A stretch of 64,000 nt of DNA from a virus. The stretch lies in IMG/VR virus record IMGVR_UViG_3300024182_000001, positions 1 through 64,000 of that record; one strand, given 5' to 3'. Under the pieces are notes generated by a model. The model worked only from the letters and a program-made list of their open reading frames with translations. It did not search any database and had not been told where the DNA came from. A program made the position numbers and the translations under genes. Below are positions 11,909 through 57,632 of this stretch, in pieces. Position 1 is the stretch's first letter. Each line of letters opens with the position of its first letter.

Positions 11909-11960
11909 TAGGCAACACGAAAAAAGTGTGGTACGGAAGTAGATGAACCAAGGGGGTTAC

Positions 11961-18828: not shown

Positions 18829-18922
18829 TTTGGATTTCTCTTACGATCGTATTTGTGGTTACACTTTCTTTGGTATGCGTTTTCACAAATACGACACCTC
18901 CTATGGCCTTTCTTACTTAAAA

Positions 18923-25085: not shown

Positions 25086-26947
25086 CCATAACGTTCTCGC
25101 AGCTCGCCATCGCAGCCTAAAGGAAGATTGGGAAGCCATGGCGGCGGCTTCGTCATCTCATCCTTGCACCTTTGCAGATGTTGAGCCTCTTGTCCATCGC
25201 GAGGTATGAGAATTAACAGTTCATCATACGGGCAGTTGAGCGTTCGATAGCCCAGCCGGTTGATCCGTACCATTGCGTCGGAAACGAGATTCCAGGCCAA
25301 TCCCTGAATTAGGTTTTCGACAGCTTTCGCGCCGTATGTTTTTTCCCATCCTTTGCGAGTTTTTAGACGCCAGTAATGCTCGCCTGATTCCTCATCGTGG
25401 TGCCACTGGAGTGTATCGAAGATGATCGGGGATCCATTCGGCAGCCACATACGCCCATCACGAATTTCCACTGGGCCCCAGCTGCATGATTCCCTGTTTG
25501 CCAGGCGCTCCAGCATCCGGCCGCCTTCCCACCAGAGTTTCACGACGGCGGGGTGTGTATTGCGGTAAGCGTCTCGCAGGTCGTTGCCGCGTTCGGGCGG
25601 AAGGATGATCTTAGCCTTGTTGCGGAGCGTGGCGAGGATCTTGGCGCCACCGGAGCCATAGCCGGCCTGTAGCTCCACGACTTTGCCGACCTGGCGTTCG
25701 GTTTTATGGTCGTTCTTGTTAACGGGATAGCCGTAGAACGCTGACGCCACGGTGGAATAGACGTCTTCCCCGTTGCGGAATTTCTCGATAACATCGTGCT
25801 GGCCCGCTACCTCATTCAACAGGCGGCACTCGATCTGTGATGAGTCGATCGGTGCCAGCAGGTAGCCTTCAGGCGCGCAGATGCCTCCTTTGAGATTGGT
25901 GTTCGTATCATCCGGCGGCATGTCGGGATCGGCTTTCTTCATGTTCAAAAAGTTACTGCCATCCCCACCACTTGGGCGCGTTGTTCTTGCACCGTACGCG
26001 CGGATATAGACCGGCAAAGCGCCTCGTGAAGACATCCACCCGAGCGTGGCGGCACGCGTCTGCTGGATCGTGGATTTCACGCCCAGGCGCGCTTGGGCCA
26101 GCAGCGATACCGTCTCGTTCTCATGTTCCGGCAGGTTCTTGAGAAAGCCGTCGTTCTTGGCAAAGGCATAGATAGGACCGTTCTTGCCTTCCTTCATTTC
26201 CGGCTCGACGCCTTGTTGGCGAAGTAAGTCAGCAAAACGATCTCCTGACTGAAGGTCAGCTTCGGTAAGACTGAGTTTCTGGAGCAGCTCCTGCTTCTTG
26301 CGCGCTTCCGCTTCCCATACCTTACCAAAGAAAGCCGAATCGCCTTGTAGTACCGGATTAACGAACATGCGTATGAGGATGTCAACGACTTCAAATTGAG
26401 CCGACGGAAAGGTTTTTGTCATCTCGCCAAATACCCGCCAGATGCTTTCAACCTCGTCGCACGCTCCATCTCCAATAAGCTCCTGGGTTGACGAATCCAG
26501 CTCATACCAATGCTTTCCTCGAAAGAGGTTGTAGGGGGTCTTCTTCAGCGGGATTCCGAATTGTTCGCGTACTGAATCCAGAGAGACTCCAATATGATTG
26601 CCGAGTAGCAGCCGAGCCATATTGAGAGTACAGCCATAAAGCTTGGGTATAACGCCGTAGCGATGAGAAAGAATGAAACCGTCAAAATTAGCGTGATGGT
26701 TAATAAGAAAAGTGTTCGACCAGTCGTGCTCCTTGAGAACATATCTCAGCTCCTTTTCCGGATACCAACGCGCGGGGACGGATGGGCTCCACTTGATGGC
26801 GGCGCCATGGGCTTCGAACCACGGGTGCCGCACGTAAGCTTCCGTTGGATACCCGGTGCCGCCACGTCCTTGTAGTTTGTAGGCAATACCGCGCTCATCC
26901 TGCGCATCTGTAAAAAACGTCTCGAAATCAAGTACTACAACGTCCAT
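25082..26947 (-). CDS. family A DNA polymerase with an N-terminal 3'-5' exonuclease
   Basis: Exo I motif in DFETFF; motif A in IDSSQIECRLL; motif B in RQVGKVVELQAGYG; motif C in PYDELL. Confidence 0.85.
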   Translation of the reverse strand: MDVVVLDFETFFTDAQDERGIAYKLQGRGGTGYPTEAYVRHPWFEAHGAAIKWSPSVPARWYPEKELRYVLKEHDWSNTFLINHHANFDGFILSHRYGVIPKLYGCTLNMARLLLGNHIGVSLDSVREQFGIPLKKTPYNLFRGKHWYELDSSTQELIGDGACDEVESIWRVFGEMTKTFPSAQFEVVDILIRMFVNPVLQGDSAFFGKVWEAEARKKQELLQKLSLTEADLQSGDRFADLLRQQGVEPEMKEGKNGPIYAFAKNDGFLKNLPEHENETVSLLAQARLGVKSTIQQTRAATLGWMSSRGALPVYIRAYGARTTRPSGGDGSNFLNMKKADPDMPPDDTNTNLKGGICAPEGYLLAPIDSSQIECRLLNEVAGQHDVIEKFRNGEDVYSTVASAFYGYPVNKNDHKTERQVGKVVELQAGYGSGGAKILATLRNKAKIILPPERGNDLRDAYRNTHPAVVKLWWEGGRMLERLANRESCSWGPVEIRDGRMWLPNGSPIIFDTLQWHHDEESGEHYWRLKTRKGWEKTYGAKAVENLIQGLAWNLVSDAMVRINRLGYRTLNCPYDELLILIPRDGQEAQHLQRCKDEMTKPPPWLPNLPLGCDGELRERYG

Positions 26948-27359
26948 ATTTCTTCCTCAAATTATAAACCGTCTGCCGCGAAATTCCGTACGCTTGCGCG
27001 ATCTCCCCAGCAAGTCGACGGTCGCGCGCCACTTCCAGGCGCTGCTCTGGAGAGAGATGAAGCCCCCGCGCGCTTTCATGAACAATCCGGTAAACCCCTC
27101 CGGGGCCGCCTGTTGCCCGGATCCGGAACTCACTGTTGCTATTTTTAAGCTTCTCGTTGGCGATATAAACCATTACAGCCACACCGTGACGACAATCGGG
27201 ACCTCCATTCGGATCATCGGCGTAGACATGGTTGATAATCTGCTCGTACGTGGCTCCTTCCGGCCGGCGCGAGATGAAATCGACGATTGCCTGGCGTCTT
27301 AATCCTCCAACTTGGATCTTGGGAGGATAGGGCCGATTACAGGTTGGGCAACATTTCAT
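26928..27359 (-). CDS. putative transcriptional regulator (N-terminal CxxC zinc ribbon, winged-helix-like core, C-terminal HTH)
   Basis: Begins MKCCPTCNRP and ends with an ISRQTVYNLRKKYG HTH. Confidence 0.45.
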   Translation of the reverse strand: MKCCPTCNRPYPPKIQVGGLRRQAIVDFISRRPEGATYEQIINHVYADDPNGGPDCRHGVAVMVYIANEKLKNSNSEFRIRATGGPGGVYRIVHESARGLHLSPEQRLEVARDRRLAGEIAQAYGISRQTVYNLRKKYGRCST

Positions 27360-27775
27360 TGCTGCTTCCCACTGCCGCGATAGCGCTTCAACCCGGCTTC
27401 ATGCTCCACAATCGAGACAAGTGCGACCGAGCAATTACATTCCTTCGCGATCTGCACCTGACTCATGCCTCCTTGTTTCGAGAGTTTTATAATCTTAGCC
27501 CTTCGCTCCGGATCATCCGTCTTTGGGCGCTTGGGAAGCCCGGCCATGCGAGCGTAGCGCAATACCGTGTTATTCGAGCAGCCGTATTCCTGCACGATAT
27601 CGCGTACCGGCTTACCATTCCGGTACGCACGCACAACACGCAGAAAGCGCACCGGTCGGTTAGCTCGCTCTTGCGCGAAATCAAAGATGCGCTTGACGCT
27701 CATAATCACGGCCAGAAAAGCGCGCGATGCTTTTGACGTCTGGACGTATTCGGCGGCTACCTTCAAGGTTATCAT
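27356..27775 (-). CDS. HTH-domain DNA-binding protein (two HTH-like segments)
   Basis: Segments VRDIVQEYGCSNNTVLRYAR and MSQVQIAKECNCSVALVSIV. Confidence 0.45.
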   Translation of the reverse strand: MITLKVAAEYVQTSKASRAFLAVIMSVKRIFDFAQERANRPVRFLRVVRAYRNGKPVRDIVQEYGCSNNTVLRYARMAGLPKRPKTDDPERRAKIIKLSKQGGMSQVQIAKECNCSVALVSIVEHEAGLKRYRGSGKQQ

Positions 27776-28317: not shown

Positions 28318-28569
28318 TTACTCTGCCCCTACGTTCCAATCCCAACCATTGGGCGCTTTATCACGAAGCAGCGTGTCCAGGCCAAAACACGCCAAGCGAT
28401 AGCGCTGCCATACCCACGGCTTGATCCTTCGATCCCTGGCGCCATGCGGCATCATCCCGGATTCGAACGAGTTTATGGACTCGCGCGAGTATCCGAGCGC
28501 CTCACCCAAGGCTTTCTGGGTGAGGTTGAGGGATTGGCGCCAGACTTTTGCTTTTTCGTATTCGGTCAT
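28318..28569 (-). CDS. XRE-family HTH regulator
   Basis: An LTQKALGEALGYSRESINSFESG segment is an HTH_3-like motif. Confidence 0.5.
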   Translation of the reverse strand: MTEYEKAKVWRQSLNLTQKALGEALGYSRESINSFESGMMPHGARDRRIKPWVWQRYRLACFGLDTLLRDKAPNGWDWNVGAE

Positions 28570-29253: not shown

Positions 29254-29413
29254 TTCTCGTGCGCCCACACATAACATAGCCCGAGAAACGCAACTAAAAC
29301 CCCAATACCAGTAGCGTGGGTATCCACAAACTGAATCAGTTGATCCATTTGCCCCTCGTTTCCAACTATCGTAACCATTACACTAGTGTATTACCAAAGT
29401 CAACAGATTCAAG

Positions 29414-29429
29414 ATCACGAACTCGTGAT
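29414..29429. promoter_or_regulatory. palindromic operator-like site ATCACGAACTCGTGAT in the divergent early control region
   Basis: Perfect half-sites ATCACGA/TCGTGAT. It is one member of a family of nine similar sites, all in intergenic DNA. Confidence 0.5.
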
Positions 29430-29614: not shown

Positions 29615-31954
29615 ATGGATCGCTCGACCACGCCACTGCTAGACGCTGCTTTGCAATATGCGGGTCGGGGGTGGCGAGTCTTTCCGCTCCATTCCGTGTG
29701 GTTCCGCTCGGCAGGGGAACCTGTCTGCACTTGCAGACGCGGGGCCGAATGCCCGAACGCGGGGAAGCACCCGCGCACCGCCAACGGCTTCAAGGACGCG
29801 ACAACCGATCCGAAGCAGATCGAAGCCTGGTGGGACAAATGGCCACAGGCTAATATCGGGATCGCCACAGGCAACGGCCTCACCGTCATGGATATCGACG
29901 GTGAGGCCGGTCGGAAAGAGCTTATCGATCTCGTTTCGAATGATCCTGCTCCATTCCCAATAACACTCGCCGCGCGCACCGGCAACGGCGGGCATCTATA
30001 TTTCTCATGCGAAGGGCCCGGCTCTGCCGCCAAAGGACATCTGCACGTCCGCGGCGAGGGTGGGTATGTGGTGGCGCCGCCTAGTATTCACAGGAGCGGG
30101 CGCTATTACGAGTGGATCGATTCGCGCGTAGGGGCTGCGGTTCCACCGGACTGGTTGCGAAGCTGGCTGCTGGCGGGCGGAGATGGGGCCAGAGCCTCGC
30201 AGCAACGTCCGATGGGCGGTGTCGAAGCGGGAATTGCCGGTACGGCTTTAGCGCTCGGGCCCGTGCCAGCCTACCTTCAGAAGGGTAGCGCCTCGCGCCT
30301 GGTCGATAAGGCTGCGATCGGGGTGCCGTGCACGTTACACGAACAGGCACGACTGTGGAGCGCGCTCAAGGCCATTCCACCGTCAATAGACGGCAAGACC
30401 TGGGTAAGCATCGGGCGGGCGCTCCATGACCTCGATTGGACTGAAGCCCCTGGGGAAGACCTCGGGCTGGATATGTGGGACGAGTGGTCCAAGGGCTCGC
30501 AGGGGCGCGGGGATGGGCTCGGGCTCTATCGTGGCAGGGAGGATCTGGAGAAGCGATGGGCGAGCTTCGAGCGGGCACCTGGAGGAGGTCGGACGTTCAC
30601 CATCGCGTCGGTGTTCCACCTTGCTGCGGAGCATGGATGGGACGGCAAGGTGGAAGCGCCGCATGGAACCAACGGACATAAGGTCGAAGAAATCAACGGC
30701 TTCAATTTCGCGGGAGCGACGTCGGCAGGCGGTGGGCCCATTTTCGTTGATACCTACAAGAATGGCGATCCAAAGCCGACTTGCGCCAATTCACGTATAG
30801 CCATTCGGGCGCTTGGAATCACGTGCAAGCACGATCAGTTCCACGACAAGCTGGAAGTCGGCGGGCAAATTCTAGGCCGATGGGCGGGCGAGCTTACCGA
30901 CAACGCCATCCACATGCTGCGGGTAGCCATCGACAGCGCCTACCAGTTCGATCCGGGGACGGTTCCGGCGCACGATGCGGCGGTACAAGAATGCTTATTG
31001 CACGCCTACGATCCAGTAGCAGAATACCTTGACGGTCTGGAGTGGGATAGAAAGCCGCGGCTGGAAAACTGGATGTCCACCTATCTCGGGGCCGAACTAT
31101 CGCGCCTTAACAGTACCATAGGTATTCTTGGCTTGGTCGCAGCTTGCCGCAGGGTCCGAATGCCTGGCGCCAAGTTCGACGCAATCACGGTTCTGGTTGG
31201 GGACGAGGGGCGGGGAAAGTCGCAAGCAATCGAGATTCTCGCGGGCGAATCCAATTTCTCGGACCAGCCTATTTTGAATATCGACGAACGCGCGCAGCAG
31301 GAAGCTATGCAAGGCGTATGGCTGTACGAAATAGCCGACTTGGCGGGGATGGGGAAGGCGGACGTGGATAAGGTCAAGGCATTTGCCTCGCGGCGCATAG
31401 ACCGGGCCCGACCCGCATACGCGCGAACCCGAATAGATCGGCCACGACGTTGCGTGTTCTTTGCCACCACCAACCTACACACGTTCTTGAAATCACAGAC
31501 AGGCAACCGACGCTTTTGGCCTGTTCAGGTCGGACATCGGATAAGAATCGACGAGCTTGTGCGGGATCGAGACCAACTGTGGGCGGAAGCCAATGCGCTG
31601 GAACGCGCTGGAATTCCATTAGGGCTGCCGGAGGCGCTTTGGAGCGAAGCGGCGGCGATCCAATTGGAACGTATGGAAATCGATCCTTGGGACGACATTT
31701 TAGCGCACATAAAACCAGGGGATCCGCACGAGACGTGGGCGCAAGGATTCAAAGACGCCGGAGCGTGGAAGGAATACCGGATAACCACCCGTGACCTATT
31801 CGAGATACACTTAAAGATTCCTGCCGACCGTCAACACGATGGAAACTATAAGCGTCTGGCGTATGCCATGCGCCGACTAGGGTGGGATGGGCCCAAAAAG
31901 ATGCGAATCGGCAACGGCGTGGCGCGCGGTTTCGCGAAAGCCTGTTCCACGTGA
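29615..31954 (+). CDS. DNA primase-polymerase (PrimPol N-terminus) fused to a VirE/P4-type P-loop C-terminal domain
   Basis: N-terminal PrimPol motifs (RVFPLH..., GKHP, MDIDGE). C-terminal Walker A in VLVGDEGRGKSQ. Confidence 0.8.
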   Translation: MDRSTTPLLDAALQYAGRGWRVFPLHSVWFRSAGEPVCTCRRGAECPNAGKHPRTANGFKDATTDPKQIEAWWDKWPQANIGIATGNGLTVMDIDGEAGRKELIDLVSNDPAPFPITLAARTGNGGHLYFSCEGPGSAAKGHLHVRGEGGYVVAPPSIHRSGRYYEWIDSRVGAAVPPDWLRSWLLAGGDGARASQQRPMGGVEAGIAGTALALGPVPAYLQKGSASRLVDKAAIGVPCTLHEQARLWSALKAIPPSIDGKTWVSIGRALHDLDWTEAPGEDLGLDMWDEWSKGSQGRGDGLGLYRGREDLEKRWASFERAPGGGRTFTIASVFHLAAEHGWDGKVEAPHGTNGHKVEEINGFNFAGATSAGGGPIFVDTYKNGDPKPTCANSRIAIRALGITCKHDQFHDKLEVGGQILGRWAGELTDNAIHMLRVAIDSAYQFDPGTVPAHDAAVQECLLHAYDPVAEYLDGLEWDRKPRLENWMSTYLGAELSRLNSTIGILGLVAACRRVRMPGAKFDAITVLVGDEGRGKSQAIEILAGESNFSDQPILNIDERAQQEAMQGVWLYEIADLAGMGKADVDKVKAFASRRIDRARPAYARTRIDRPRRCVFFATTNLHTFLKSQTGNRRFWPVQVGHRIRIDELVRDRDQLWAEANALERAGIPLGLPEALWSEAAAIQLERMEIDPWDDILAHIKPGDPHETWAQGFKDAGAWKEYRITTRDLFEIHLKIPADRQHDGNYKRLAYAMRRLGWDGPKKMRIGNGVARGFAKACST

Positions 31955-32215
31955 GGTGGAACAGGGTGGAACAGAAATGGCATTGAAAAACCACGATATT
32001 TCCATCTGTTCCATCTGTTCCACCTTTTATATAAGTTTATACAATAGAAAAAAGGGGGGAGGGGGGACACGTAATAATTACATATAGGGGGTATAGAAAT
32101 ATTATAAGGCTATAGAGGCGAAGGCGGGACTCGCGGGAACGCGCGGCACGCCATTGATATATAAGGATAAATCGCGTTTTTTGACGTGGAACAGGATGGA
32201 ACAGGATGGAACGGG
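31942..32215. repeat. putative replication origin with eight copies of a TGGAACAG iteron (direct and inverted) flanking an AT-rich segment and two G6 tracts
   Basis: Copies start near 31942 (inverted), 31957, 31967, 32006 (inverted), 32015 (inverted), 32187, 32196 and 32206. The AT-rich TTTTATATAAGTTTATACAATAG segment and AAAAAAGGGGGGAGGGGGG lie between them, directly downstream of the primase gene. Confidence 0.6.
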
Positions 32216-32236: not shown

Positions 32237-32252
32237 AGTGTAATGATTGCGA
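32237..32252. repeat. copy of the AGTGTAAnGATTnCG direct-repeat family
   Basis: AGTGTAATGATTGCGA. Related copies lie at 33699, 33741 and 33763, and a variant at 36368. Confidence 0.4.
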
Positions 32253-32620: not shown

Positions 32621-33268
32621 CTATCTGTGAACCGCAACCCCACGCGAATAATAGCCGGAAACGTCCTCCCCCGATGGAACATCGCCCGGCCGCAAGACGT
32701 ACAGCGCGCAGCCTCTAGGATCGCTCTGGATGTAGGTTCTAAGATTTGGGTACTTGGCCATGATTTTTGCCAAATGCTTACGGGCGCCCTTTTCTCGGTC
32801 CGGGATAGGGGTGTAGCGAGGCTGTGGCGGTCCCTGGTGGGGGTGGAATTTGATGAAGGGCGTTCCATCGTCGTTATGGACGAAATCGCGCCTACAGGCC
32901 GCGCAATCGATCCATTCAGCGGTTTCGAAGGTATCGTCAGGGATGCCGAATGCCTCGAAAGCAGCCTTTTCGGTGCTGGTGTATAGTTTCAGGGGATGTT
33001 TAGGCGTGTTAGCCGTCCACATCTCGCCGTCCCACCATGCGCCAGATGCGTTTTTGATAGCCCATTCGGCTGGCGCCTTGTGCTGCGCGCCTCGCACGAT
33101 GCACCAAGACCCATATATGTCCGAATTGCCACACTCGCCTTCAAACCAGCGTTGCAGGGTCATGGAAATCTTGCGCAGCGCCCAGGCGTCCTCGTAGGTG
33201 ACGCCGGCTTGGGTCAGGGCGTTGACCATGCGGGAAGTTGCTTCCCATTCGGCTTTTGTGCGGCTCAT
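32621..33268 (-). CDS. hypothetical Trp-rich early protein (215 aa)
   Basis: Start chosen at MSRTKAEW. The 19-bp palindrome TCGCGAATTAAATTCGCGA lies 43 nt upstream. Confidence 0.45.
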   Translation of the reverse strand: MSRTKAEWEATSRMVNALTQAGVTYEDAWALRKISMTLQRWFEGECGNSDIYGSWCIVRGAQHKAPAEWAIKNASGAWWDGEMWTANTPKHPLKLYTSTEKAAFEAFGIPDDTFETAEWIDCAACRRDFVHNDDGTPFIKFHPHQGPPQPRYTPIPDREKGARKHLAKIMAKYPNLRTYIQSDPRGCALYVLRPGDVPSGEDVSGYYSRGVAVHR

Positions 33269-33329: not shown

Positions 33330-33698
33330 TTTCATACGCCAAGTGCCGAGCTTGTGCTTCGGTCGTAGCGTGCAGGATAGTGTCGCCGACGTGTACGTTG
33401 AAAGCCATCAGGCTGTGGAAATACGAATTGGGACTGGATCGTGATTTTGATCATTTTCCACCTTGCTCCGGACTCTTGGCGCCGGGAAGCCGTTTTAGGG
33501 TTAGCGTTGCCAGTCGGTGGGCAGAAAGCCCCCTTTTGAGAGCCAGGCGTCTAGCCCTGTTATGAGGTCTGCTAATTCGAGACAGAGCGCTCCGAAATCC
33601 TGCGAATCTACAGTTTCGGTTTCTGCGCATTTGGCACGAATTAATTCTAGCGTTGCGTTTGGGTCCATCTGCTTTCCTCTCGTTTCGAACAATTCACA

Positions 33699-33778
33699 GT
33701 GTAATGATTACGCATAAAATGTCCAATCACGAACGCGTGAAGTGTAACGATTGCGGTATTGGAGTGTAAGGATTACGG
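33699..33778. repeat. three direct repeats AGTGTAA(T/C/G)GATT(A/G)CG(C/G) interleaved with an operator-like palindrome
   Basis: Copies at 33699-33714, 33741-33756 and 33763-33778. The palindrome ATCACGAACGCGTGA lies at 33726-33740. Confidence 0.5.
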
Positions 33779-33827
33779 TAACGCGTTTGTGATTGGGGGC
33801 TGACTATTTTTTCCTTGCGTGCTGGAA

Positions 33828-33842
33828 GTGGAAGCATTACAC
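33828..33842 (+). promoter_or_regulatory. conserved promoter-like box GTGGAAGCATTACAC, followed by the conserved leader GAAACAAGGGGAGTTGAGAAATG
   Basis: One of three copies of GTGGAA-N3-TTACAC, each 30-45 nt upstream of an early ORF start. Confidence 0.45.
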
Positions 33843-33872
33843 TTGGGAAATCGAAACAAGGGGAGTTGAGAA

Positions 33873-34124
33873 ATGTCTAAGCTTACTAAATTGCAGCGGC
33901 GGGCAATCGAGCGGGCGCTATATCATGCGCAGCGAGCGCAGAAATATATTGCGGATAATCGGACGGCTGTTGCGCGCGTCGATAATACTGCGACCACGAC
34001 GTTGCACTATACGCGGCAAGATGGGCGTATTTTGTACGAGGTAGCGAAAGATATAGGAAGTGATTTATGCGGCTTGCCTGACGCGATTCGGGAATTGGAA
34101 CAGCTACTAATCACGAAAGCGTGA
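33873..34124 (+). CDS. hypothetical early protein (83 aa)
   Basis: Has the conserved leader and RBS (AAGGGGAG). Confidence 0.45.
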   Translation: MSKLTKLQRRAIERALYHAQRAQKYIADNRTAVARVDNTATTTLHYTRQDGRILYEVAKDIGSDLCGLPDAIRELEQLLITKA

Positions 34125-34125
34125 C
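34110..34125. promoter_or_regulatory. palindromic operator-like site ATCACGAAAGCGTGAC
   Basis: Overlaps the stop of the previous ORF and immediately precedes the promoter box at 34137. Confidence 0.45.
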
Positions 34126-34136
34126 TTGAATTCCGC

Positions 34137-34153
34137 TAGTGGAAAGGTTACAC
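34137..34153 (+). promoter_or_regulatory. promoter-like box TAGTGGAAAGGTTACAC with the conserved leader GGAAACAAGGGGAGAGAGAAATG
   Basis: The 17-mer is identical to the copy at 34944. Confidence 0.45.
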
Positions 34154-34184
34154 GTTTAGGCGTTGGAAACAAGGGGAGAGAGAA

Positions 34185-34787
34185 ATGCTTAGGACGCAAG
34201 GTTTATTCGAGCGAATCGCCAAACACGTGCCGTATGAGGAATTGGACTGGGCGAACCATTACGGCGAACCTGGTTACACCGATCCGGAGCGTGGCATTTT
34301 ATTTGCCAATTGGAACAAGGTTCCGCAACCCGTGCAGGATGTGCTAGAACGCAATGGTTTCGCGCTCGAATGGTCGGATGAATGGATCATAGATCATGAG
34401 AGTGACAAGGCATACCGTTGCTCGCCTGATTGTTATTCATGGGTGCCTTCCTACGTTATGACGGAGGATTGTGAGATTATCGGCAAGGATGATTTGGACG
34501 ATCATATTGATTCGTATATTGAAATCTATTTGAACGACTCGAATCGCGCGGCAACGTTCGATAACTTCGATCCGGCTCAATACGGTTTCGAGAAATACAA
34601 TGGCACGTTCGAGTCGGGGGTTCATCCTGGTCAAACGGACGATCCGAAGAAGGTTGCAGAGAAGATTGAATCCATGCACCCGAATCACGACTATCTGTTT
34701 ACGATTGATGAGCAATCACAATTCTATACCAAATGGTGCGCTTGGATTCGGCCGCAAGATTATGACCAGCAGGAAAGTGCAGCATGA
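34185..34787 (+). CDS. hypothetical acidic early protein (200 aa)
   Basis: Has the conserved leader and RBS. Confidence 0.45.
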   Translation: MLRTQGLFERIAKHVPYEELDWANHYGEPGYTDPERGILFANWNKVPQPVQDVLERNGFALEWSDEWIIDHESDKAYRCSPDCYSWVPSYVMTEDCEIIGKDDLDDHIDSYIEIYLNDSNRAATFDNFDPAQYGFEKYNGTFESGVHPGQTDDPKKVAEKIESMHPNHDYLFTIDEQSQFYTKWCAWIRPQDYDQQESAA

Positions 34788-34882
34788 TCACAGCCAAGGA
34801 TATATTCTGGACTTGCGCCCTTACATGCTTGTTGTGGGGCTTGTTGTACCTTTGGAGCTTGAGCCTCACACCTCCCGTCTAA
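34784..34882 (+). CDS. very small hydrophobic peptide (32 aa)
   Basis: ATGA-coupled to the upstream gene and ends just before a rho-independent terminator. Sequence MITAKDIFWTCALTCLLWGLLYLWSLSLTPPV. Confidence 0.25.
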   Translation: MITAKDIFWTCALTCLLWGLLYLWSLSLTPPV

Positions 34883-34887
34883 TGCCT

Positions 34888-34914
34888 AGCCCCGGTCAAT
34901 CCGGGGCTTTTTTA
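34888..34914 (+). terminator. rho-independent terminator
   Basis: A GCCCCGG-tcaat-CCGGGGC hairpin followed by TTTTTT. Confidence 0.6.
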
Positions 34915-34916
34915 TT

Positions 34917-34932
34917 ATCACGCGTTTGTGAT
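34917..34932. promoter_or_regulatory. palindromic operator-like site ATCACGCGTTTGTGAT
   Basis: Lies between the terminator and the promoter box at 34944. Confidence 0.5.
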
Positions 34933-34943
34933 TAGATTCTTGA

Positions 34944-34960
34944 TAGTGGAAAGGTTACAC
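34944..34960 (+). promoter_or_regulatory. promoter-like box TAGTGGAAAGGTTACAC
   Basis: Third copy; it sits 33 nt upstream of ATG 34993. Confidence 0.45.
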
Positions 34961-34992
34961 ATAGAAATCGGCAACGCAATGGAGCAACTAAA

Positions 34993-35241
34993 ATGAGTAT
35001 GTGCAAGGCGACTTTATTGGATGATAATGCTGTACCAGCGGCAAAGCCTGAAAGTCTCTGCGAGCAACTGGAAGCGATGATTGATCGCGCTAGCCTGCTC
35101 GACGTGTTGACGGCGCTAGAGTGTGTATGCGGTGAAAAGGCGGATCACATCCGGGCTAACTGGCAAGATAAGACGACGGCGCGGCCATGGGCTACGGCAT
35201 CCAAGCGGATCGGAGTGGTGGCGCGACAAACTGAGATTTAG
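34993..35241 (+). CDS. hypothetical early protein (82 aa)
   Basis: Follows the promoter box and is followed by a terminator. Confidence 0.45.
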   Translation: MSMCKATLLDDNAVPAAKPESLCEQLEAMIDRASLLDVLTALECVCGEKADHIRANWQDKTTARPWATASKRIGVVARQTEI

Positions 35242-35269
35242 CGTTTCGCGCCTAGCGTCTGATCCCAAA

Positions 35270-35294
35270 GGCCCGCATTGACTGCGGGCCTTTT
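35270..35294 (+). terminator. rho-independent terminator
   Basis: A GGCCCGC-attgact-GCGGGCC hairpin followed by TTTT. Confidence 0.6.
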
Positions 35295-35336
35295 CATTTG
35301 TTATGATAGCGCGAATATTAATGAGGCATACAATCC

Positions 35337-35894
35337 ATGGGCGTGTTACGCAATGCGAAGTGGGAAGCGTTCGCACAAGCCTTATCAAAAGGACAACCCG
35401 TCTTATCATCGTATGTGCTTGTAGGATATAGAGAAAATGCGCCTAACGCCACGCGCCTAGCAAAAAATGATAAGATTCAGACAAGAATTGACGAATTGAT
35501 AGCAAGAAAAGACGAATCATTGATAAGAGCGGAAACGCGGGCGATTAGTGCCGCAGCCGTTGACAAGAAATGGGTATTGCAACGTCTTGTTTATGAAGCG
35601 GAAAAAGGTGAGCAATCATCAGCCAGATGCAAGGCCTTAGAGCTAGTCGGCAAGGAAATGGGGATGTTTATCCAGCGCCAAGAGATAGGCACGCCAGGAT
35701 CATTCGAGACGCTAGACACCACGCAAGCCATCCTTGACGCCGTGCGCCAACAGCTCGGAGACGAAGCATACAACGCAATGAGGGCGCTAGTCGATAAAAA
35801 GACCAACGCCCCCAAGGTAATAGAGCATCGCGAAAACGAATCAGAGCAGGACTCGGAGATCATCGACGCTGAGCCGATCCGGGGCTTCGACTAG
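35337..35894 (+). CDS. terS: terminase small subunit (Terminase_2-like)
   Basis: The N-terminus KWEAFAQAL...VGYRENAPNATRLAKNDKIQTRIDEL matches the TerS family pattern KQExFxQEY...AGYS..A...A..L...N..IQ.RI.EL, as does a later R.KALELVGKEMGMF segment. Confidence 0.65.
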   Translation: MGVLRNAKWEAFAQALSKGQPVLSSYVLVGYRENAPNATRLAKNDKIQTRIDELIARKDESLIRAETRAISAAAVDKKWVLQRLVYEAEKGEQSSARCKALELVGKEMGMFIQRQEIGTPGSFETLDTTQAILDAVRQQLGDEAYNAMRALVDKKTNAPKVIEHRENESEQDSEIIDAEPIRGFD

Positions 35895-36056
35895 CTCACG
35901 CGCCAGCAACTCGATAGTCTGCATCCAATCCGCTGCGCTCTCGCCCCGCATGATTAGTGCGTCGACTTGGTAGCGCTTGCTAGGCGTTGCCGGCTTCGCC
36001 GTCACGTCTTGGACAACTGCATTCCCCTTGCGATCAAACACCAATTGCTTTGCCAT
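35841..36056 (-). CDS. hypothetical protein overlapping the terS 3' end on the opposite strand
   Basis: ORF only; the convergent 54-nt overlap makes it doubtful. Confidence 0.2.
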   Translation of the reverse strand: MAKQLVFDRKGNAVVQDVTAKPATPSKRYQVDALIMRGESAADWMQTIELLARELVEAPDRLSVDDLRVLL

Positions 36057-36060
36057 GGTC

Positions 36061-36243
36061 TTAGCCTCCCATGACTTGGCAAGTGTTCATTGCGGCTGCG
36101 ATTTCTTCCGCGAGTTCAGCGCCGTCGGTATGATCACTGTGTGGGTCTACTATCGCAACCACTGCGTTGCTGTGCGCGTCAACGATGTGATACTCCGCAT
36201 CCCCTGAGTCGTGCGGGATGTGAGCTTTAACGAAATAGCGCAT
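36061..36243 (-). CDS. small hypothetical His/Asp-rich protein (60 aa)
   Basis: The palindrome at 36313 lies 70 nt upstream. Confidence 0.35.
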   Translation of the reverse strand: MRYFVKAHIPHDSGDAEYHIVDAHSNAVVAIVDPHSDHTDGAELAEEIAAAMNTCQVMGG

Positions 36244-36312
36244 TGACTAATCTCCCCTAAGCCGCACCATCGCGGCAAGCACACGATAGCAGTGCAACCA
36301 TTCCACTTCCTA

Positions 36313-36328
36313 ATCACAATGTCGTGAT
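36313..36328. promoter_or_regulatory. palindromic operator-like site ATCACAATGTCGTGAT
   Basis: Upstream of the minus-strand gene that starts at 36243. Confidence 0.45.
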
Positions 36329-36648
36329 AATGCAAACCTCTCAACGTCCGTTGATAGGATCGTAATGGTGTAAGGTATTGCCGCAAGTGTTGCGCGCCAG
36401 CAACAGTATAGACAAAGGCAAGGCTTAGGGAGGAGGATAGGAGCAGGGCAGGGCCAAAGGCTGGCGGCTCAGGGCCACGCGCCGATCGCCAACTGGGTCC
36501 GGTGCATACCCGAGCCCCCCGCTAATCGAGCCGCGCTGCGATGACGGTTCCCCTCCGCCCCTCACGCAAAGCTCTGAAAAATATAAAAATTTTCTATAAA
36601 CTTTTAGTCCACTTCTATACCAAGTTGCCAAACGCGAGACACTTCGCC

Positions 36649-38384: not shown

Positions 38385-38642
38385 TCAGTTAGTCATCTGC
38401 GGATTTTCTTCTCGTCGCCGCTTGATCAAAGCATCTAGCTGCTCGATAAGCCATATCGATGTCTCGATCGTCATCTTGCAGTGTGCGATCAGGTGGTTCG
38501 GTTCATAGTAAACCCGGAGGTGGACCGCCTGACACGTAGGATCGTCGCAGGAGGTTACGGCGATGGTCTGGCCCATCACGACTTCCGGCGGTTCAAAATC
38601 TACTGACATTGCAAAACCCTGCCTACTTGCGAGCTGCTCCAT
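38385..38642 (-). CDS. hypothetical protein
   Basis: ORF; the start is uncertain. Confidence 0.3.
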   Translation of the reverse strand: MEQLASRQGFAMSVDFEPPEVVMGQTIAVTSCDDPTCQAVHLRVYYEPNHLIAHCKMTIETSIWLIEQLDALIKRRREENPQMTN

Positions 38643-39277
38643 CCCCCAACCCCGCGCGCGGTTGGAACCCCGCGCTGGGTGAGATCAGCAGCGATTTCCG
38701 TAAGGGATGGAACCCTGCCTCCTTTTCTCTCTATGATGTCTACGATCGTCGGGTACACATCCTTGGCTCTTGCCCGAGCCCGCTCCCTCACTACCCGCGC
38801 TCCCTCCAGCTGCGCCTCCCGGCTCACCACAACCCCCCGATTTCCTCCGAGCTTCACGCCTCGGGCCTTCGCCGCCGCCAGCGCCGCCTTGGTTCTCGCA
38901 CTTATAAGTCCAGCCTCCAGCTCCGCCACTGCCGCCATTTGCTGGAGCATAAACCGTCCCGTCGGCCCCTCGATCATCGGCAGATCGGCAAATCGCACCT
39001 CTACCCCAGCTTCCAGCAATCTCGATAAAAACGCCACGCTTCTCGTCAGCCGGTCCACCTTCGCGACCACCACCGGGATCCGATGGAGTCTCCCGACCGC
39101 CAGAGCCTTGTCCAGCTCTGGACGATCGCTTCGCTTGCCCGTCTCCACCTCGGTAAACTCTGAATGGATCCGACCGCCTCCGAGATACCCGAGCACCGCA
39201 GCCCTTTGCGCTTCGAGCCCGAGCCCGCTCAGCCCCTGCTTCTTAGTGCTGACCCTGTAATAAGCCACGAACTGCAT
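38600..39277 (-). CDS. small serine recombinase (resolvase/invertase family)
   Basis: The N-terminal AYYRVSTKKQ carries the catalytic Ser. A C-terminal HTH is present. The length of 225 aa is far too short for a large serine integrase. Confidence 0.8.
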   Translation of the reverse strand: MQFVAYYRVSTKKQGLSGLGLEAQRAAVLGYLGGGRIHSEFTEVETGKRSDRPELDKALAVGRLHRIPVVVAKVDRLTRSVAFLSRLLEAGVEVRFADLPMIEGPTGRFMLQQMAAVAELEAGLISARTKAALAAAKARGVKLGGNRGVVVSREAQLEGARVVRERARARAKDVYPTIVDIIERKGGRVPSLTEIAADLTQRGVPTARGVGGWSSSQVGRVLQCQ

Positions 39278-39959: not shown

Positions 39960-40139
39960 TCATGGCACCCTCATGAATGGATAAGCTTCCTGGCAATGTT
40001 CGGCGCAGTAGGCCGCGCGTGCTCCTTGCCTCTGCAGCGCCGGCTTCCCGCAGAACAGATGCCGGTACTCGTCTTCACCCGTCGGGTACCTGCATCCGCT
40101 CTCGGGTACCTCCCAGATGGGAATTCCTTCATTTTCCAT
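39960..40139 (-). CDS. small Cys/His-containing protein (59 aa, zinc-binding candidate)
   Basis: My own translation gives MENEGIPIWEVPESGCRYPTGEDEYRHLFCGKPALQRQGARAAYCAEHCQEAYPFMRVP. It overlaps the PseI stop by 11 nt. Confidence 0.3.
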   Translation of the reverse strand: MENEGIPIWEVPESGCRYPTGEDEYRHLFCGKPALQRQGARAAYCAEHCQEAYPFMRVP

Positions 40140-41208
40140 CAGCGTTCTCCATCGGGCGAAGTACGCGCTCGAACATTTCCAGCTTTAATGGCTCTCCACG
40201 CTCGATATCACGCGTGGCTTTATTCCCTACAATCTTGTCGATCGTATCCGGCGGCCAGCCGTGCCCCGGCCGGATGCTTCTCACATTCTCGTAGCTGAAT
40301 ACTTCCCCTTTCTTGATATCCTGCACGACGAACAGCGAGCGTCGATACGCTTTATGCACGCTCTCGGTCGTCACTTCCTCACTCTCTTGCATCGCCGACC
40401 ACGTCTCGTAGACCGCCTTGACCATCCGGGCGAACGCCGCCGGCTGCAAACTAAAAGCCTCATCCTCGCTATTCACACCCTCCAGTCTGAAATGCTTCTC
40501 GACCATGCACGCCCCAAGCGCTGTCGCAGCAATTGGAACCTCAAGCCCGAGCGTATGGTCTGACACGCCGTAGAGCGGGGAGTATCTCCGCATCTTGCCG
40601 AGGTTATAATCGCTTGTCTTGGCGGGGTATCCGGAGACGCAGTGGAGCACCACAGGTCCTGTCCCTACATCGCCCAGCCAACTTCCATCCGCGTACACGT
40701 TCGCCACGGCCCCGAGCGCTTTCAGTATGTCGTGCTGGTTCGCCATCCCGGTGGATAAAATAACGGGCTTCCCGGTTCGCGCCGCGTACCTGATCAGTGG
40801 GATATCCGTGATCTCGAACGAGGCAATCTTATATGCCGGGCACTTCAGCTTTTCCAGCATGTCGACGCTCGACGGGTCAAAAACGGAGGCAAACCACTCG
40901 ATCCCTATTGCCTTGGCATGCTCGGCGATCCAGGGGAACCACTCGAACGGCGTCTCACACTTCTTATACAGGTCCCACAGCCGCTTCCCCTTCCAGGGCC
41001 CATCCTTGATAAAAAACTCGTCCCGATCGCAATTCAGCGTGATCGTCTCGGCCGTATATGCCTGCAATTTACAAGCATCGGCTCCGCTCCGCTTGGCGGC
41101 TTCCATCGTTTCCAGGCACCGGTCCAAGCTCCCCATATGGTTCGCGCCTATCTCACAAACGATATAGGGGGCTTCCCCGCCTCCGATTTCTCTACTTCCG
41201 ATTTTCAC
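40129..41208 (-). CDS. pseI: pseudaminic/N-acetylneuraminic acid synthase family protein (NeuB/PseI-like, with SAF domain)
   Basis: N-terminus IGGGEAPYIVCEIGANHMGSLDRCLETMEAAKRSGADACKLQ. The family identification is confident; the exact sugar product is inferred. Confidence 0.8.
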   Translation of the reverse strand: MKIGSREIGGGEAPYIVCEIGANHMGSLDRCLETMEAAKRSGADACKLQAYTAETITLNCDRDEFFIKDGPWKGKRLWDLYKKCETPFEWFPWIAEHAKAIGIEWFASVFDPSSVDMLEKLKCPAYKIASFEITDIPLIRYAARTGKPVILSTGMANQHDILKALGAVANVYADGSWLGDVGTGPVVLHCVSGYPAKTSDYNLGKMRRYSPLYGVSDHTLGLEVPIAATALGACMVEKHFRLEGVNSEDEAFSLQPAAFARMVKAVYETWSAMQESEEVTTESVHKAYRRSLFVVQDIKKGEVFSYENVRSIRPGHGWPPDTIDKIVGNKATRDIERGEPLKLEMFERVLRPMENADGK

Positions 41209-41446
41209 TCAGTACCTCCCTTGGATCATACGTCCCGTTTGTATCTGGTATCCAGCCGGGGCACGTCATGAGCCCGTCGACATACCACACGGCTCCTTCC
41301 TTCTTATGGTCCCGGAAGCACTTGCCTGTGGTCTCGTCTTCTCCCGAGAACGTTTTGAACGAATAGTATCCACACATCCAGCATCGGTGTGGATCATCCT
41401 TGGTCGTAAGCTTCGCATCCGGCGGTGCGGCGTCGAAGATGCTCAT
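41192..41446 (-). CDS. small Cys-containing hypothetical protein (84 aa)
   Basis: ATGA-coupled to the PseC stop. Start chosen at MSIFDAAPPD. Confidence 0.35.
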   Translation of the reverse strand: MSIFDAAPPDAKLTTKDDPHRCWMCGYYSFKTFSGEDETTGKCFRDHKKEGAVWYVDGLMTCPGWIPDTNGTYDPREVLSENRK

Positions 41447-42585
41447 AGCTTCATCTCCTCCGCTACTTTCTTGAAAGCGTTTCCGATCTGCTTGATCTGT
41501 TCTCGCGTTGGCGACCACGCGCAATTCTCGAACAAAAAGAGCCTGCGGTCGTGAAGGTCTTCTGCCACCGGGCACTCTCTTGCATACTTCGAGAACGCCG
41601 GCAGCCGGTACAGCGGCGCCACATATCCCTGGCTCACCGGCACGCCTTCCATGAACAGCCGGCTGGTGAACTCGGCCCGCGCTCCTGACGTTTCGTTCTT
41701 CATGAGAAACGGGATGGCATAATAAACATGCTTGCATCCTTCCCGCACCGCGGGCCCTCGTATTCCAGGAATATCCCCGATCGCCTCGATGATCGCTTCT
41801 GCTTGCTCGATCCTTCCGCCAATCAGCTCGTCCGCCCTTTGGAGCTGCGAGAGCGCAATGGCCGCGGATACCTCGGTAAGTCGGAGGTTGAGGCCAATAG
41901 CCTTTCCCGCCATCTCCCCATGGTTAACGAATCTCCGTATTTTTTCCGCAAGCTCGTCGTTATCCGTGACGCATATACCTCCCTCACCACATTGCAAATG
42001 CTTATGTACGTTGAGGCTGAAAACTCCGATGTCTCCGAATGTTCCGGCATATTCACCTCGCTCCATTGCAAAGGGGGATTGGGAATTGTCTTCGATCACC
42101 GTGATATAGTTGGGTAGTTGTATCATTAAATCCTGTACTGCGGATGGATGCCCGAACAAGTTTGTTATTATAAGAGTTTGGCACCTATCTTCGTTGAAGT
42201 CGATATCGGCTGCGTGCTCAGGATTCATACAGAAGGTTGCATCTTCCACGTCAATAAAATGGGGACGGGATCCGGTGAACATTGGGGCTGCGACAGTAGC
42301 CGACATGGTGTAAGGTGAGACGGCAAACCTATTGAAGGTGGAAAGCCCGACCGCAAACGCCGCCGCCAGCAGCCCCGACGTTGCCGAATTGCATGCAACG
42401 GCGTGTTTGACGTCAAATCGCGCAGCCCACTTTTCCTCCAATTCGCAGACGTAATATCCATTCGATCTCAGCTTGCCGCCGATAAAGCCTGACAGGGTAT
42501 GACCACGCAGCATATTGTACGCGTTATATTTATCGGCGTGACTAACAGCTTCGTACGGCGCAATAGCCCCTTTCACTTCCGGCAT
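41443..42585 (-). CDS. pseC: DegT/DnrJ/EryC1-family PLP aminotransferase (PseC-like sugar aminotransferase)
   Basis: 380 aa of the DegT family, co-operonic with PseB- and PseI-like genes. Confidence 0.8.
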   Translation of the reverse strand: MPEVKGAIAPYEAVSHADKYNAYNMLRGHTLSGFIGGKLRSNGYYVCELEEKWAARFDVKHAVACNSATSGLLAAAFAVGLSTFNRFAVSPYTMSATVAAPMFTGSRPHFIDVEDATFCMNPEHAADIDFNEDRCQTLIITNLFGHPSAVQDLMIQLPNYITVIEDNSQSPFAMERGEYAGTFGDIGVFSLNVHKHLQCGEGGICVTDNDELAEKIRRFVNHGEMAGKAIGLNLRLTEVSAAIALSQLQRADELIGGRIEQAEAIIEAIGDIPGIRGPAVREGCKHVYYAIPFLMKNETSGARAEFTSRLFMEGVPVSQGYVAPLYRLPAFSKYARECPVAEDLHDRRLFLFENCAWSPTREQIKQIGNAFKKVAEEMKL

Positions 42586-43463
42586 AATTCCTCCCTCAAT
42601 TCCTCAACCGACATTCTTCGTGCGTCTTTGCTGCAGTTTGTTTCGTCCATGCTTTCGTGCAGCTTTTCCCAGCGCGGCAACCCGATTACGCGCATCTGCG
42701 CTTGGAATGCCTCAACGAGATCGCCCAGCCGATAGGCCGGCAACCGCGGGATTGCCAGTTCGCCACCTCGCATATCCTTGGCGGTATTGAGCACAAGGTC
42801 GACGGCTTGCTCCATCCGCATGAAGAAGCGCGTGCAGTTGGGATCGGTGACGTTGAGCCACGCGGGGTTCGGGTAGTACTTCTCGCATTCGGCTTTCCAC
42901 AATGGAACCACTGATCCTGTGGAACCCCAGACGTTGCCGTACCGGCAGACTGCAAACCGTGGGCCCTCTGCCCCGGTCGTATTATTTGCCGCGAGAAACA
43001 ACGACTCCATCATCGCTTTGCTGCACCCATATGGCGAGATTGGCTGGAACGCCTTGTCGCTCGATACTCCCACCACTTTCCTGACGCCTGCGTCTTGCGC
43101 CGCTTCTACCACGTTCATGGCCCCGAACACGTTGGTCTTCACCATCTCGATCGGGTTGTAGTGTCCCACCTCGATCCGCTTAAGCGCCGCGGCGTGGATC
43201 ACCACGTCGATACCGCGCATGGCGCGCACCAGTCGATCTCGATCCCGCACGTCGCCGATGAAGAAGCGTAACCGCTTATGTGGATCTAACCCTGCAAGCT
43301 CTTGGGACATCTGGTGCTGGCGGAATTCGTTGCGCGAGAATATGACTATCTTGCTAATATTTTCATATAAGGCGAGCGACGCGAAACGCGTAGTTTCTAG
43401 TAGCTGCTTCGCCAGCGCGGTTCCAAGCGCCCCTGAGCCTCCGGTTATTAAATACGACGTCAC
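42573..43463 (-). CDS. pseB: UDP-GlcNAc 4,6-dehydratase of the PseB/FlaA1/CapD type (short-chain dehydrogenase)
   Basis: ITGGSGALG Rossmann motif. Segments KIVIFSRNEFRQHQM, RFFIGDVRD and HAAALKRIE resemble PseB. Confidence 0.8.
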   Translation of the reverse strand: MTSYLITGGSGALGTALAKQLLETTRFASLALYENISKIVIFSRNEFRQHQMSQELAGLDPHKRLRFFIGDVRDRDRLVRAMRGIDVVIHAAALKRIEVGHYNPIEMVKTNVFGAMNVVEAAQDAGVRKVVGVSSDKAFQPISPYGCSKAMMESLFLAANNTTGAEGPRFAVCRYGNVWGSTGSVVPLWKAECEKYYPNPAWLNVTDPNCTRFFMRMEQAVDLVLNTAKDMRGGELAIPRLPAYRLGDLVEAFQAQMRVIGLPRWEKLHESMDETNCSKDARRMSVEELREELCRK

Positions 43464-48240: not shown

Positions 48241-48416
48241 TCTGGAAGCTCCACTTTGATCCAATGGGTAAAACCAGCTTTTTCTGGTTCTAGATAATGA
48301 GTAGCGCTGCTGGTAAACCACGCCACCGGATGTGGAGCATCTTTATTCCATACAAGTATGATGGATCCATCACGTGGAGCCGCGCAGTATTCCAGATTTT
48401 CCCATTCCCACTTCAT
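48237..48416 (-). CDS. small hypothetical protein (59 aa)
   Basis: My own translation gives MKWEWENLEYCAAPRDGSIILVWNKDAPHPVAWFTSSATHYLEPEKAGFTHWIKVELPE. ATGA-coupled on both sides. Confidence 0.3.
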   Translation of the reverse strand: MKWEWENLEYCAAPRDGSIILVWNKDAPHPVAWFTSSATHYLEPEKAGFTHWIKVELPE

Positions 48417-57631: not shown

Positions 57632-57632
57632 A

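Follow-up and report, generated by a model that had tools for sequence, protein, structure and literature searches.

Repeated early-region cassettes of an uncultured phage probably combine sigma70-type promoters with two kinds of operator

Genes and features of the cassette region

The window analysed here comprises positions 1 to 64,000 of the IMG/VR record IMGVR_UViG_3300024182_000001 (henceforth W), whose source contig measures 71,657 nt. It is phage-like, encoding a Prim-Pol/PriCT-2/VapE primase-helicase (29615–31954), a family A DNA polymerase, a SNF2 helicase, a large terminase, a portal protein of the SU10 type and a DNA methylase. This study concerns a set of repeated cassettes upstream of small genes, in a region located between the origin (iterons 31942–32215) and a small-terminase-like gene (35337–35894). 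A first-pass annotation had noted three of them, before the start codons at 33873, 34185 and 34993, each composed of an ATCACG..GTGAT palindrome, a near-identical box and a short leader, and had proposed that the box is a phage-specific promoter. We use P for the palindrome ATCAC-N6-GTGAT, B for a 15-bp dyad with core TGTA-N5-TACA, and box for the GTGGAA-N3-TTACAC variant of B.

A megablast search of 31–39 kb against phage records gave no match, protein-level searches retrieved distant isolates only, and an Rfam scan of the entire window returned nothing. The large-terminase gene is nearest, by protein search, to those of Roseobacter, Paracoccus and Rhizobium phages (∼31–42% identity); the host of this uncultured lineage of ∼70-kb phages is possibly a member of the Alphaproteobacteria. 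Relative contigs were recovered via the primase (L001, L004, L010, L012–L015 and L097). Those with a primase identity of at least 58% form the close clade (L001, L015, L097 and L004, the latter with 72% identity over the part present), while L012–L014 and L010 (primase ∼50% identical) are more distant. About 80 open reading frames (ORFs) of the window were scanned against Pfam and PHROGs; a few small ORFs lay outside the scan.

The cassette region contains the following features (strand in parentheses; none is given for P).

33501–33668 (−): 55-aa gene (phrog_865), served by the leftward cassette
33699–33713 (−): B dyad GCGTAATCATTACAC; its 3′ end TACACT (33703–33698) is the putative −10 of the leftward promoter
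33720–33725 (−): −35-like TGGACA of the leftward promoter, spacer 16, abutting P
33726–33741: P ATCACGAACGCGTGAA, one mismatch, centred at about −42.5 of the leftward promoter
33742–33756 (−): B dyad CCGCAATCGTTACAC, directly abutting P
33764–33778 (−): B dyad CCGTAATCCTTACAC, overlapping the degenerate P by one base
33778–33793: degenerate P GTAACGCGTTTGTGAT, two mismatches, 21 bp upstream of the cassette 1 −35, centred at about −64.5
33815–33843 (+): cassette 1 core promoter, −35-like TTGCGT (33815–33820), 17-bp spacer, putative −10 TACACT (33838–33843)
33828–33842 (+): cassette 1 box GTGGAAGCATTACAC
33853–33872 (+): leader with Shine-Dalgarno block GAAACAAGGGGAGTTGAGAA, before the ATG at 33873
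33873–34124 (+): 83-aa gene, no family match
34110–34125: P ATCACGAAAGCGTGAC, one mismatch, overlapping the stop codon of the 83-aa gene, centred at about −43.5 of cassette 2
34126–34154 (+): cassette 2 core promoter, −35-like TTGAAT (34126–34131), 17-bp spacer, box TAGTGGAAAGGTTACAC (34137–34153), putative −10 TACACG (34149–34154)
34166–34184 (+): leader with Shine-Dalgarno block GAAACAAGGGGAGAGAGAA, before the ATG at 34185
34185–34787 (+): 200-aa gene, phrog_35561 (unknown function)
34784–34882 (+): 32-aa hydrophobic ORF, overlapping the 200-aa gene
34888–34914 (+): intrinsic-terminator-like hairpin (34888–34908) with T-run, ending the second transcription unit
34917–34932: perfect P ATCACGCGTTTGTGAT, centred at about −43.5 of cassette 3
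34933–34961 (+): cassette 3 core promoter, −35-like TAGATT (34933–34938), 17-bp spacer, box TAGTGGAAAGGTTACAC (34944–34960), putative −10 TACACA (34956–34961)
34993–35241 (+): 82-aa gene, no family match, followed by a terminator-like hairpin (35267–35293)

The two terminator-like hairpins (34888–34908 and 35267–35293) delimit the units. The original view of repeated promoter/leader cassettes is thus supported, and they head separate small transcription units.

The box is a variant of a recurrent dyad

The exact box GTGGAANNNTTACAC occurs at 33828–33842, 34139–34153 and 34946–34960, on the plus strand each time, and its end lies 30, 31 and 32 nt from the start codons at 33873, 34185 and 34993, respectively. 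When up to two mismatches are allowed, 14 matches are found against 2.9 expected, a number that 0 of 100 shuffles reached, so that the shared box architecture before these three starts is real and far above chance. Cassettes 2 and 3 share the 17-mer TAGTGGAAAGGTTACAC in full (34137–34153 and 34944–34960, 17/17), while the 11 nt between P and box differ. Moreover, 11 of the 17 TTACAC sequences in the window are intergenic, intergenic DNA making up ∼11% of the window. This enrichment, together with the 17/17 identity within differing flanks, argues that the box is under selection and was not recently copied.

A wider motif, GNAA-N3-TTACAC, has eight exact copies where 0.21 are expected, every one of them intergenic and located between 29.3 and 35.0 kb. 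Three of these are the GTGGAA forms; the others are CGTAAY or CGCAAT forms at 29369(+), 32238(−), 33699(−), 33742(−) and 33764(−). A box copy of the form GTGGAATGGTTGCAC is found at 36292(−). The box is one variant of B, an imperfect palindrome built on the TGTA-N5-TACA core. Elsewhere, between two minus-strand genes, an 11-bp inverted repeat at 18840–18895 (TCGTATTTGTG...CACAAATACGA) holds TTACAC in its 27-nt loop; this is not a B site.

Six perfect copies of P are present in the window (0.03 expected). That the palindrome comes first at all three genes holds for cassette 3, where P is perfect, and for cassette 2, where it has one mismatch; the copy preceding cassette 1 is degenerate and lies 21 bp further from the promoter. 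P is also found in the late region. At 51951–51966 it lies 11 nt before the portal start codon, at 59966–59981 it precedes a putative capsid gene (60030), and at 63479–63494 the palindrome GGTGGAACTTCCACC (63500–63514) lies 5 nt beyond it, with the same spacing of P, 6 nt and GTGGAA as at 36313(−). A copy with a single mismatch, at 56276–56291, lies inside a gene.

The leader sequence GAAACAAGGGGAG..GAGAAATG is the same at 33853 and 34166, in agreement with the near-identical leader and ribosome-binding site first seen at two of the three genes; allowing up to two mismatches, however, it has three matches against 1.3 expected and alone is not significant. A ∼35-nt leader, CACCTTGCTCCGGRCTCTYGGYGCCGGGAARCCGT, is conserved on the transcribed strand just upstream of small-gene start codons, once in W (33459–33493, minus strand) and twice in L001 (8038–8075 and 8511–8548).

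Recent tandem duplication of one gene had been named at the outset as a trivial source of the repeat. This was checked and failed: the 83-, 200- and 82-aa proteins show no mutual similarity, and DNA self-similarity is limited to blocks of 13–17 nt. Gene duplication was consequently rejected, and the repeat is not its by-product.

Core promoter geometry and register with P

Each P was oriented toward the gene start closest to it and the best hexamers were picked out, the −10 being taken as −12 to −7. In every cassette, a −35-like hexamer was found 16–18 bp upstream of a hexamer starting with TA. The pairs in the window are TTGCGT-17-TACACT, TTGAAT-17-TACACG, TAGATT-17-TACACA, TGGACA-16-TACACT, TAGGAA-18-TATCGT and TTGACT-17-TAATGG, with orthologues in L001, L015, L097 and L004. 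The 3′ end of the box itself, TACACN, lies 16–17 bp downstream of TTGCGT, TTGAAT and TAGATT, on which basis the cassettes are read as promoters of the sigma70 type. This runs counter to the initial statement that the box does not resemble sigma70 −35/−10 elements, as do the dyads that lie on consensus promoters in L004 (see below). A hexamer score of at least 8 at a fixed offset from P was found at 5 of 34 P flanks, against a background of 0.9%. Across W, L001, L015 and L097, the gap between P and the −35 takes three values, 0 bp in eight cassettes, 10 bp in five and 21 bp in one:

Gap 0 bp: W 34110+, 34917+, 33726−, 36313−; L001 8125−, 8773−, 8794+; L015 4977+
Hexamers at gap 0 bp: −35 TTGAAT, TAGATT, TGGACA, TAGGAA, TAGACA, ATGTAA; −10 TACACN, TACAAA, TATCGT, TATGCT; spacers 16–18
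Gap 10 bp: W 29414−; L001 3519−, 9166+; L015 1222−; L097 1844−; −35 TTGAC[A/T/G]; −10 starting with TA, spacers 17–18
Gap 21 bp: W 33778+; −35 TTGCGT; −10 TACACT

Given the putative −10, P would be centred at −42.5 to −44.5 in the eight abutting cassettes, at −53.5 to −54.5, or at −64.5 (roughly −43.5, −53.5 and −64.5 for gaps of 0, 10 and 21 bp), each step amounting to about one helical turn. The −35 is weak where P abuts it (mean match to TTGACA ∼3.9/6) and consensus where P lies at a distance of 10 bp (5.2/6) or is missing, as in L004 (5.5/6), in a small and non-independent sample. In alignments of the cassettes, both orthologous and paralogous, no variation is seen in the P arms, in TCTnTTGAC or TnG at the −35, or in GnA and TTACA of B. 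The predicted leaders, of 23–25 nt, fit the start codons.

At ∼10 sites between 29.3 and 36.4 kb, and also in four contigs of related phages, the −10 region is overlapped by B in one orientation or the other. B lies over the −10 in forward orientation at W 34139, 34946, 33828 and 33699(−), and in reversed orientation at W 29369, L001 3519 and 9166, L015 1222 and L097 1844. Orientation follows the gap class: where the gap is 0 bp B is forward, and where it is 10 bp B is reversed, with the exception of 36313(−) and one copy in L097.

The same architecture precedes minus-strand genes, at 33699–33741 (listed above), 36283–36328 and 29369–29429, and one further B dyad adjoins the origin:

36283–36328 (−): cassette with P (36313–36328), TAGGAA, box GTGGAATGGTTGCAC (36306–36292) inside the spacer, and TATCGT; it serves genes of 60 aa (36061–36243) and 71 aa (35841–36056)
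29369–29429 (−): leftward replication-operon promoter, P (29414–29429), 10-bp gap, TTGACT (29403–29398), 17-bp spacer, TAATGG (29380–29375)
32238–32252 (−): B dyad TCGCAATCATTACAC, adjoining the origin iterons; no promoter recognised there

At the replication-operon promoter, a reversed B (29369–29383) overlaps TAATGG, an arrangement kept in L001, L015 and L097. The pair TTGAAT-16-TACACT at 29414(−) was dropped in favour of TTGACT-17-TAATGG, as only the −35 of the latter is conserved in these three contigs.

A canonical promoter with neither P nor B, TTGACT-18-TGnTATGAT, precedes the small-terminase-like gene (35278–35307, plus strand), partly overlapping the hairpin at 35267–35293; it indicates that the phage uses host-type promoters. 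On the plus strand at 33693–33720, a strong sigma70-like sequence, TTCACA-16-TAAAAT (10/12), fully overlaps the leftward promoter and has B in its spacer, and P 33726 would fall at about +1 to +14 of it. The pair may constitute a face-to-face switch, or the overlap may be due to chance.

Conservation and gene exchange in related phages

P is exactly kept in L001, L015 and L097, where B takes the forms CGTACTCGTTACAA, TTGTA-N5-TACxx or GTGCAAGGTTTACAC. L004 has no P at all, yet it carries perfect TGTA-N5-TACA dyads (TGTATAAATTACAT, TTGTAGTTTATACAA) that span the spacer and −10 of consensus TTGACA/TTGACT-17-TATACA/TACATA promoters. P is absent from the distant relatives L012–L014 and L010. L014 has a different repeated palindrome, GTAGT-N7-ACTAC (14374, 16600, 17692 and 18600), inside a cassette AATAATATCTCCCCGGTAGTTGCC.CCACTAC, where it overlaps a TTGCCA-18-TACTCT/TATAGC promoter, which makes for an analogous system of other specificity. 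The dyads on the consensus promoters of L004 and the palindrome proper to L014 suggest that phages of this family as a rule place lineage-specific operators over host-type promoters. The proposal that the cassettes contain lineage-specific protein-binding sites is supported, as a prediction from sequence.

Between two anchors, a 215-aa gene (32621–33268) and the small-terminase-like gene, the genes of W, L001 and L015 are entirely different and the cassettes persist. Cassette 3 (W 34917) and its orthologue at L015 4977 are near-identical over ∼45 nt, with unrelated genes downstream. This calls to mind the promoter-early/stem-loop (PeSL) cassettes of T4-type phages, conserved units flanking small variable ORFs in a plastic region in which genes are swapped (PMC2839356, PMC4122927). 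The cassettes described here likewise persist while the lineage-variable small ORFs between them differ. However, the phage is not T4-type, a terminator stem-loop precedes cassette 3 only, the conserved parts are operator dyads and not the T4 early-promoter consensus, and recombination at the cassettes would be an extrapolation from gene content. On the strength of the same likeness, the repeats might be regarded mainly as recombination boundaries, or as remnants of a recent duplication, that by themselves regulate nothing. This we hold to be very improbable: the downstream proteins are not paralogs and the 13–17 nt blocks sit within diverged flanks, these blocks coincide with promoter geometry and with the distance to the start codon, and their conservation extends to phages with proteins only 50–70% identical. 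Shuffling is compatible with a regulatory role and is probably secondary to it.

Two further conserved features were noted. W (36495–36523) and L001 (∼11937–11965) share a 29-nt block, GGGTCCGGTGCATACCCGAGCCCCCCGCT, without a single difference, within otherwise diverged non-coding DNA, and an AT-rich stretch comes after it. The block may serve as an attachment, cos or pac site or as an RNA element, although Rfam returned nothing. In addition, a long minus-strand operon for sugar biosynthesis of the nonulosonic-acid type (40129–48321) is also present in L013 and L014. It encodes NeuB/SAF, DegT-type aminotransferases, a cytidylyltransferase-aminotransferase fusion, a Polysacc_synt_2 epimerase, a GFO/IDH oxidoreductase, two methyltransferases and one acetyltransferase.

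Relation of the box to the origin iterons

Directly after the primase gene lies an origin-like region (31942–32215) with ∼9 iterons RTGGAACAG in tandem arrays of 10-bp period (31942–31974, 32000–32024 in reversed orientation, and 32186–32215) on either side of an AT-rich stretch (32027–32110). Iterons occur at the same place in relatives, as TGGAAC in L001 and TGGGACA in L015. GTGGAA is indeed common to the box, the iterons and the palindrome GGTGGAACTTCCACC at 63500–63514, as pointed out initially, and a B dyad lies beside the iterons at 32238. Both observations would suit binding of the box by the replication initiator, through the primase C-terminal domain or another iteron-binding protein, which would couple early transcription to the origin.

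Several findings speak against such a link. The C that follows TGGAA is invariant in the iterons, whereas the boxes have A, G or T at this position, and the boxes are single-copy. In L015 the iteron has changed to TGGGACA and the orthologous box reads GTGCAAGGTTTACAC (GTGCAA...), so the box does not track the iteron change; conversely, L001 has kept TGGAAC iterons with boxes mostly devoid of GTGGAA (CGTAC-type, CGTACTCGTTACAA). Within the window itself, five of the eight B copies have CGTAA or CGCAA instead of TGGAA, and GTGGAA occurs 67 times. The box therefore does not behave as a member of the iteron family. Given the lack of co-variation in L015 and L001 and the differing base after TGGAA, the shared GTGGAA is best treated as coincidence, reflecting at most a distant half-site similarity, and the idea that one protein binds both iterons and box has little to recommend it: we regard binding by the initiator as highly improbable.

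Search for a phage polymerase and for the binding proteins

As originally proposed, the box itself might be a phage-specific promoter. Its reader would then be a phage polymerase, a sigma-like factor or an RNA-polymerase modifier in place of host sigma70 acting through −35 and −10 elements. This would account for the conservation of 15–17 nt including spacer positions (17/17), for the constant 30–32 nt to the start codons and for a −10-like part that is atypical for E. coli. A potential reader is a 139-aa protein (27356–27775, minus strand) with two tandem helix-turn-helix (HTH) motifs (HTH_23/HTH_7 and Sigma70_r4_2), the latter being the sole sigma-related match (29.8 bits, cut-off 25.7), and several large proteins of the window are unannotated. 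However, the Pfam and PHROGs scans detected no RNA polymerase and no sigma factor with region 2 among the ∼80 ORFs, and the 139-aa protein is absent from the equivalent position in L001, which still has B-type sites. Moreover, B is a dyad and is found pointing either way with respect to transcription, unlike the asymmetric promoters of polymerases and sigma factors, it is accompanied by −35-like hexamers at canonical spacing, and in L004 the same dyad lies over consensus sigma70 promoters. A phage-specific promoter is thus unlikely.

Besides the 139-aa protein, the HTH proteins of the window are those encoded at 16657–16917 (86 aa), 26928–27359 (143 aa) and 28318–28569 (XRE-type, 83 aa), and a resolvase (38600–39277). 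The XRE-type protein was rejected as the P binder: its recognition helix reads SRESINSFE in W and SIEAIYWFE in L001, both of which have P, and L012 has an L001-like helix but no P. The 143-aa protein, which combines a zinc ribbon with a winged helix that looks OmpR-like by eye and an HTH at the C terminus, has few homologues and no match to any solved structure; it was likewise set aside, as its recognition helix does not co-vary with P. The 215-aa protein (32621–33268) was dropped as the B binder, no DNA-binding fold being recognised (AlphaFold2 pLDDT 84; no Foldseek match against PDB at E <0.1).

A scan of IMG/VR for paired P sites yielded 80 contigs, mostly from an unrelated marine group with a 17-nt gap. 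These share no proteins with the window, except for L053 (large terminase, 43%) and the contig of L001 itself, and are therefore of no help in finding the binder. The composite pattern P + TAGAYW + TACA matched only the contig of L001 in IMG/VR. Other viral contigs carry arrays of three to four ATCACG-N4-CGTGAT sites within ∼150–330 bp (L053 529–656, L033 497–785, L063 2524–2852). Two L053 sites match W sites exactly (ATCACTTTCTCGTGAT, ATCACGAACTCGTGAT), and the L053 large terminase is 43% identical to that of W.

A model of the cassettes

We consider it probable, though well short of certain, that the cassettes are sigma70-type promoters for the host RNA polymerase, equipped with an operator that overlaps the −10, presumably a repressor site, and with a regulator site upstream that keeps to a fixed phase. 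Together with at least three on the minus strand, the three cassettes would serve the host housekeeping RNA polymerase, each heading a short early transcription unit with a leader of ∼23–25 nt. B would be a 15-bp dyad operator covering the 3′ half of the spacer and the −10, its TACA half doubling as the −10 (TACACN), such that a protein bound to B would occlude the −10. Most likely, B is a phage repressor site exerting joint control over all early-region promoters between 29 and 36.4 kb. This is suggested by the position of the dyad over the −10, classic for repressors, and by its confinement to the early region, including the leftward replication-operon promoter.

P would be a further operator, independent of B and bound by a dimeric protein. 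Its register with the −35 is fixed (gap 0, 10 or 21 bp), and it always occupies the same helix face. The weak −35 beside P and the helical phasing slightly favour a class-II-type activator site, as with Mor of phage Mu. A co-repressor site just upstream of the −35, comparable to that of KorB in plasmid RK2, fits the geometry equally well.

Some observations weigh against this model. Many cassettes are orthologues or copies of one another, so that the counts are not independent. The −10 candidates TACACG and TACACA (two of three) lack the T at −7 needed by E. coli sigma70, although E. coli may not resemble the host. P also occurs without a recognisable promoter (51951, 59966 and 63479) and within a gene (56276), and forward B at 36313(−) and in L097 misses the −10, lying within the spacer or across the −35 instead. 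The binder search, by co-variation of HTH recognition helices with P and by the fold of the 215-aa protein, tied no protein to P or B, and the obvious candidate, the XRE-type protein, does not co-vary with P. Finally, all −10 and +1 positions, and hence the transcription start sites, as well as the pairing of proteins with sites and the sign of regulation, are read from the DNA.

Comparison with known systems

The Mor site of phage Mu is a 16-bp element of two 5-bp inverted repeats with a 6-bp spacer, centred at −43.5 of a promoter with a weak or absent −35 (PMC4390567). P has the same anatomy and, provided that the putative −10 is right, would take up this position in eight cassettes (centre −42.5 to −44.5). 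It differs in occurring also at −53.5 and −64.5, near consensus −35s and at non-promoter sites, and in its arm sequence. Moreover, the cassettes add a second operator over the −10, and none of the scanned ORFs gave a hit to the Mor/C family (Pfam Mor).

At the korA, trfA and klcA promoters of RK2/RP4 (IncP-1), the KorA operator (OA) overlaps the −10 and the KorB operator (OB) lies upstream; this pair recurs at several promoters, 'propagated as preformed units', and the upstream-type operator is also found distant from promoters (PMC2680271). The cassettes follow the same plan, several promoters each having an operator over the −10 and another immediately upstream of the −35, and the P copies away from promoters (51951, 59966, 63479 and 56276) resemble distant KorB sites. 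The operators are 27.5–28.5 bp apart from centre to centre, versus 32–33 bp at RK2 korAp. They further differ in sequence and in belonging to a phage instead of a plasmid, and no ParB-family (KorB-like) or KorA domain was detected among the scanned ORFs of the window. KorA and KorB cooperate irrespective of phasing, whereas P keeps a strict helical register with the −35, and repression in the cassettes is presumed from operator position.

The half-site of P, ATCAC, equals that of the lambda operators, whose consensus is TATCAC, and in both cases several operators are clustered between divergent promoters. The arms are spaced by N6 instead of the N5 of lambda, however, and no cI/Cro homologue could be tied to P. 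A separate site with lambda-like N5 spacing, ATCAC-N5-GTGAT (57888–57902), was observed in the divergent region 57835–57902 between genes at 56999–57652(−) and 57962–58633(+), along with a B-like site with a 4-nt centre, TGGAACTCAATTACAC. The box also resembles the gal operators, of the LacI/GalR type, which are 16-bp dyads with an even centre (central CG). The box, in contrast, is 15 bp long with an odd, 3-nt centre, and no LacI-family protein was detected.

Biological meaning

A more novel arrangement would be a two-site promoter code, in which a dyad doubles as the −10 and a one-face upstream palindrome is present at late-gene junctions as well, with portable units of P and B carrying unrelated ORFan genes between phages in PeSL-like shuffling outside the T4 group. 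The reader would perhaps belong to a new family, e.g. the 139-aa two-HTH protein resembling sigma region 4, or an unannotated protein. We consider this combination improbable. The cassettes are best read as a known kind of element, host-type promoters with phage operators, that is new in this uncultured lineage. Their analysis corrects the idea of a novel promoter class or an iteron-linked factor and opens no long-standing question. Instead, it offers a concrete, testable map of the early regulatory circuit, consisting of about six promoters, two operator types and their register, and it illustrates how small genes are exchanged behind promoter-operator cassettes that stay conserved.

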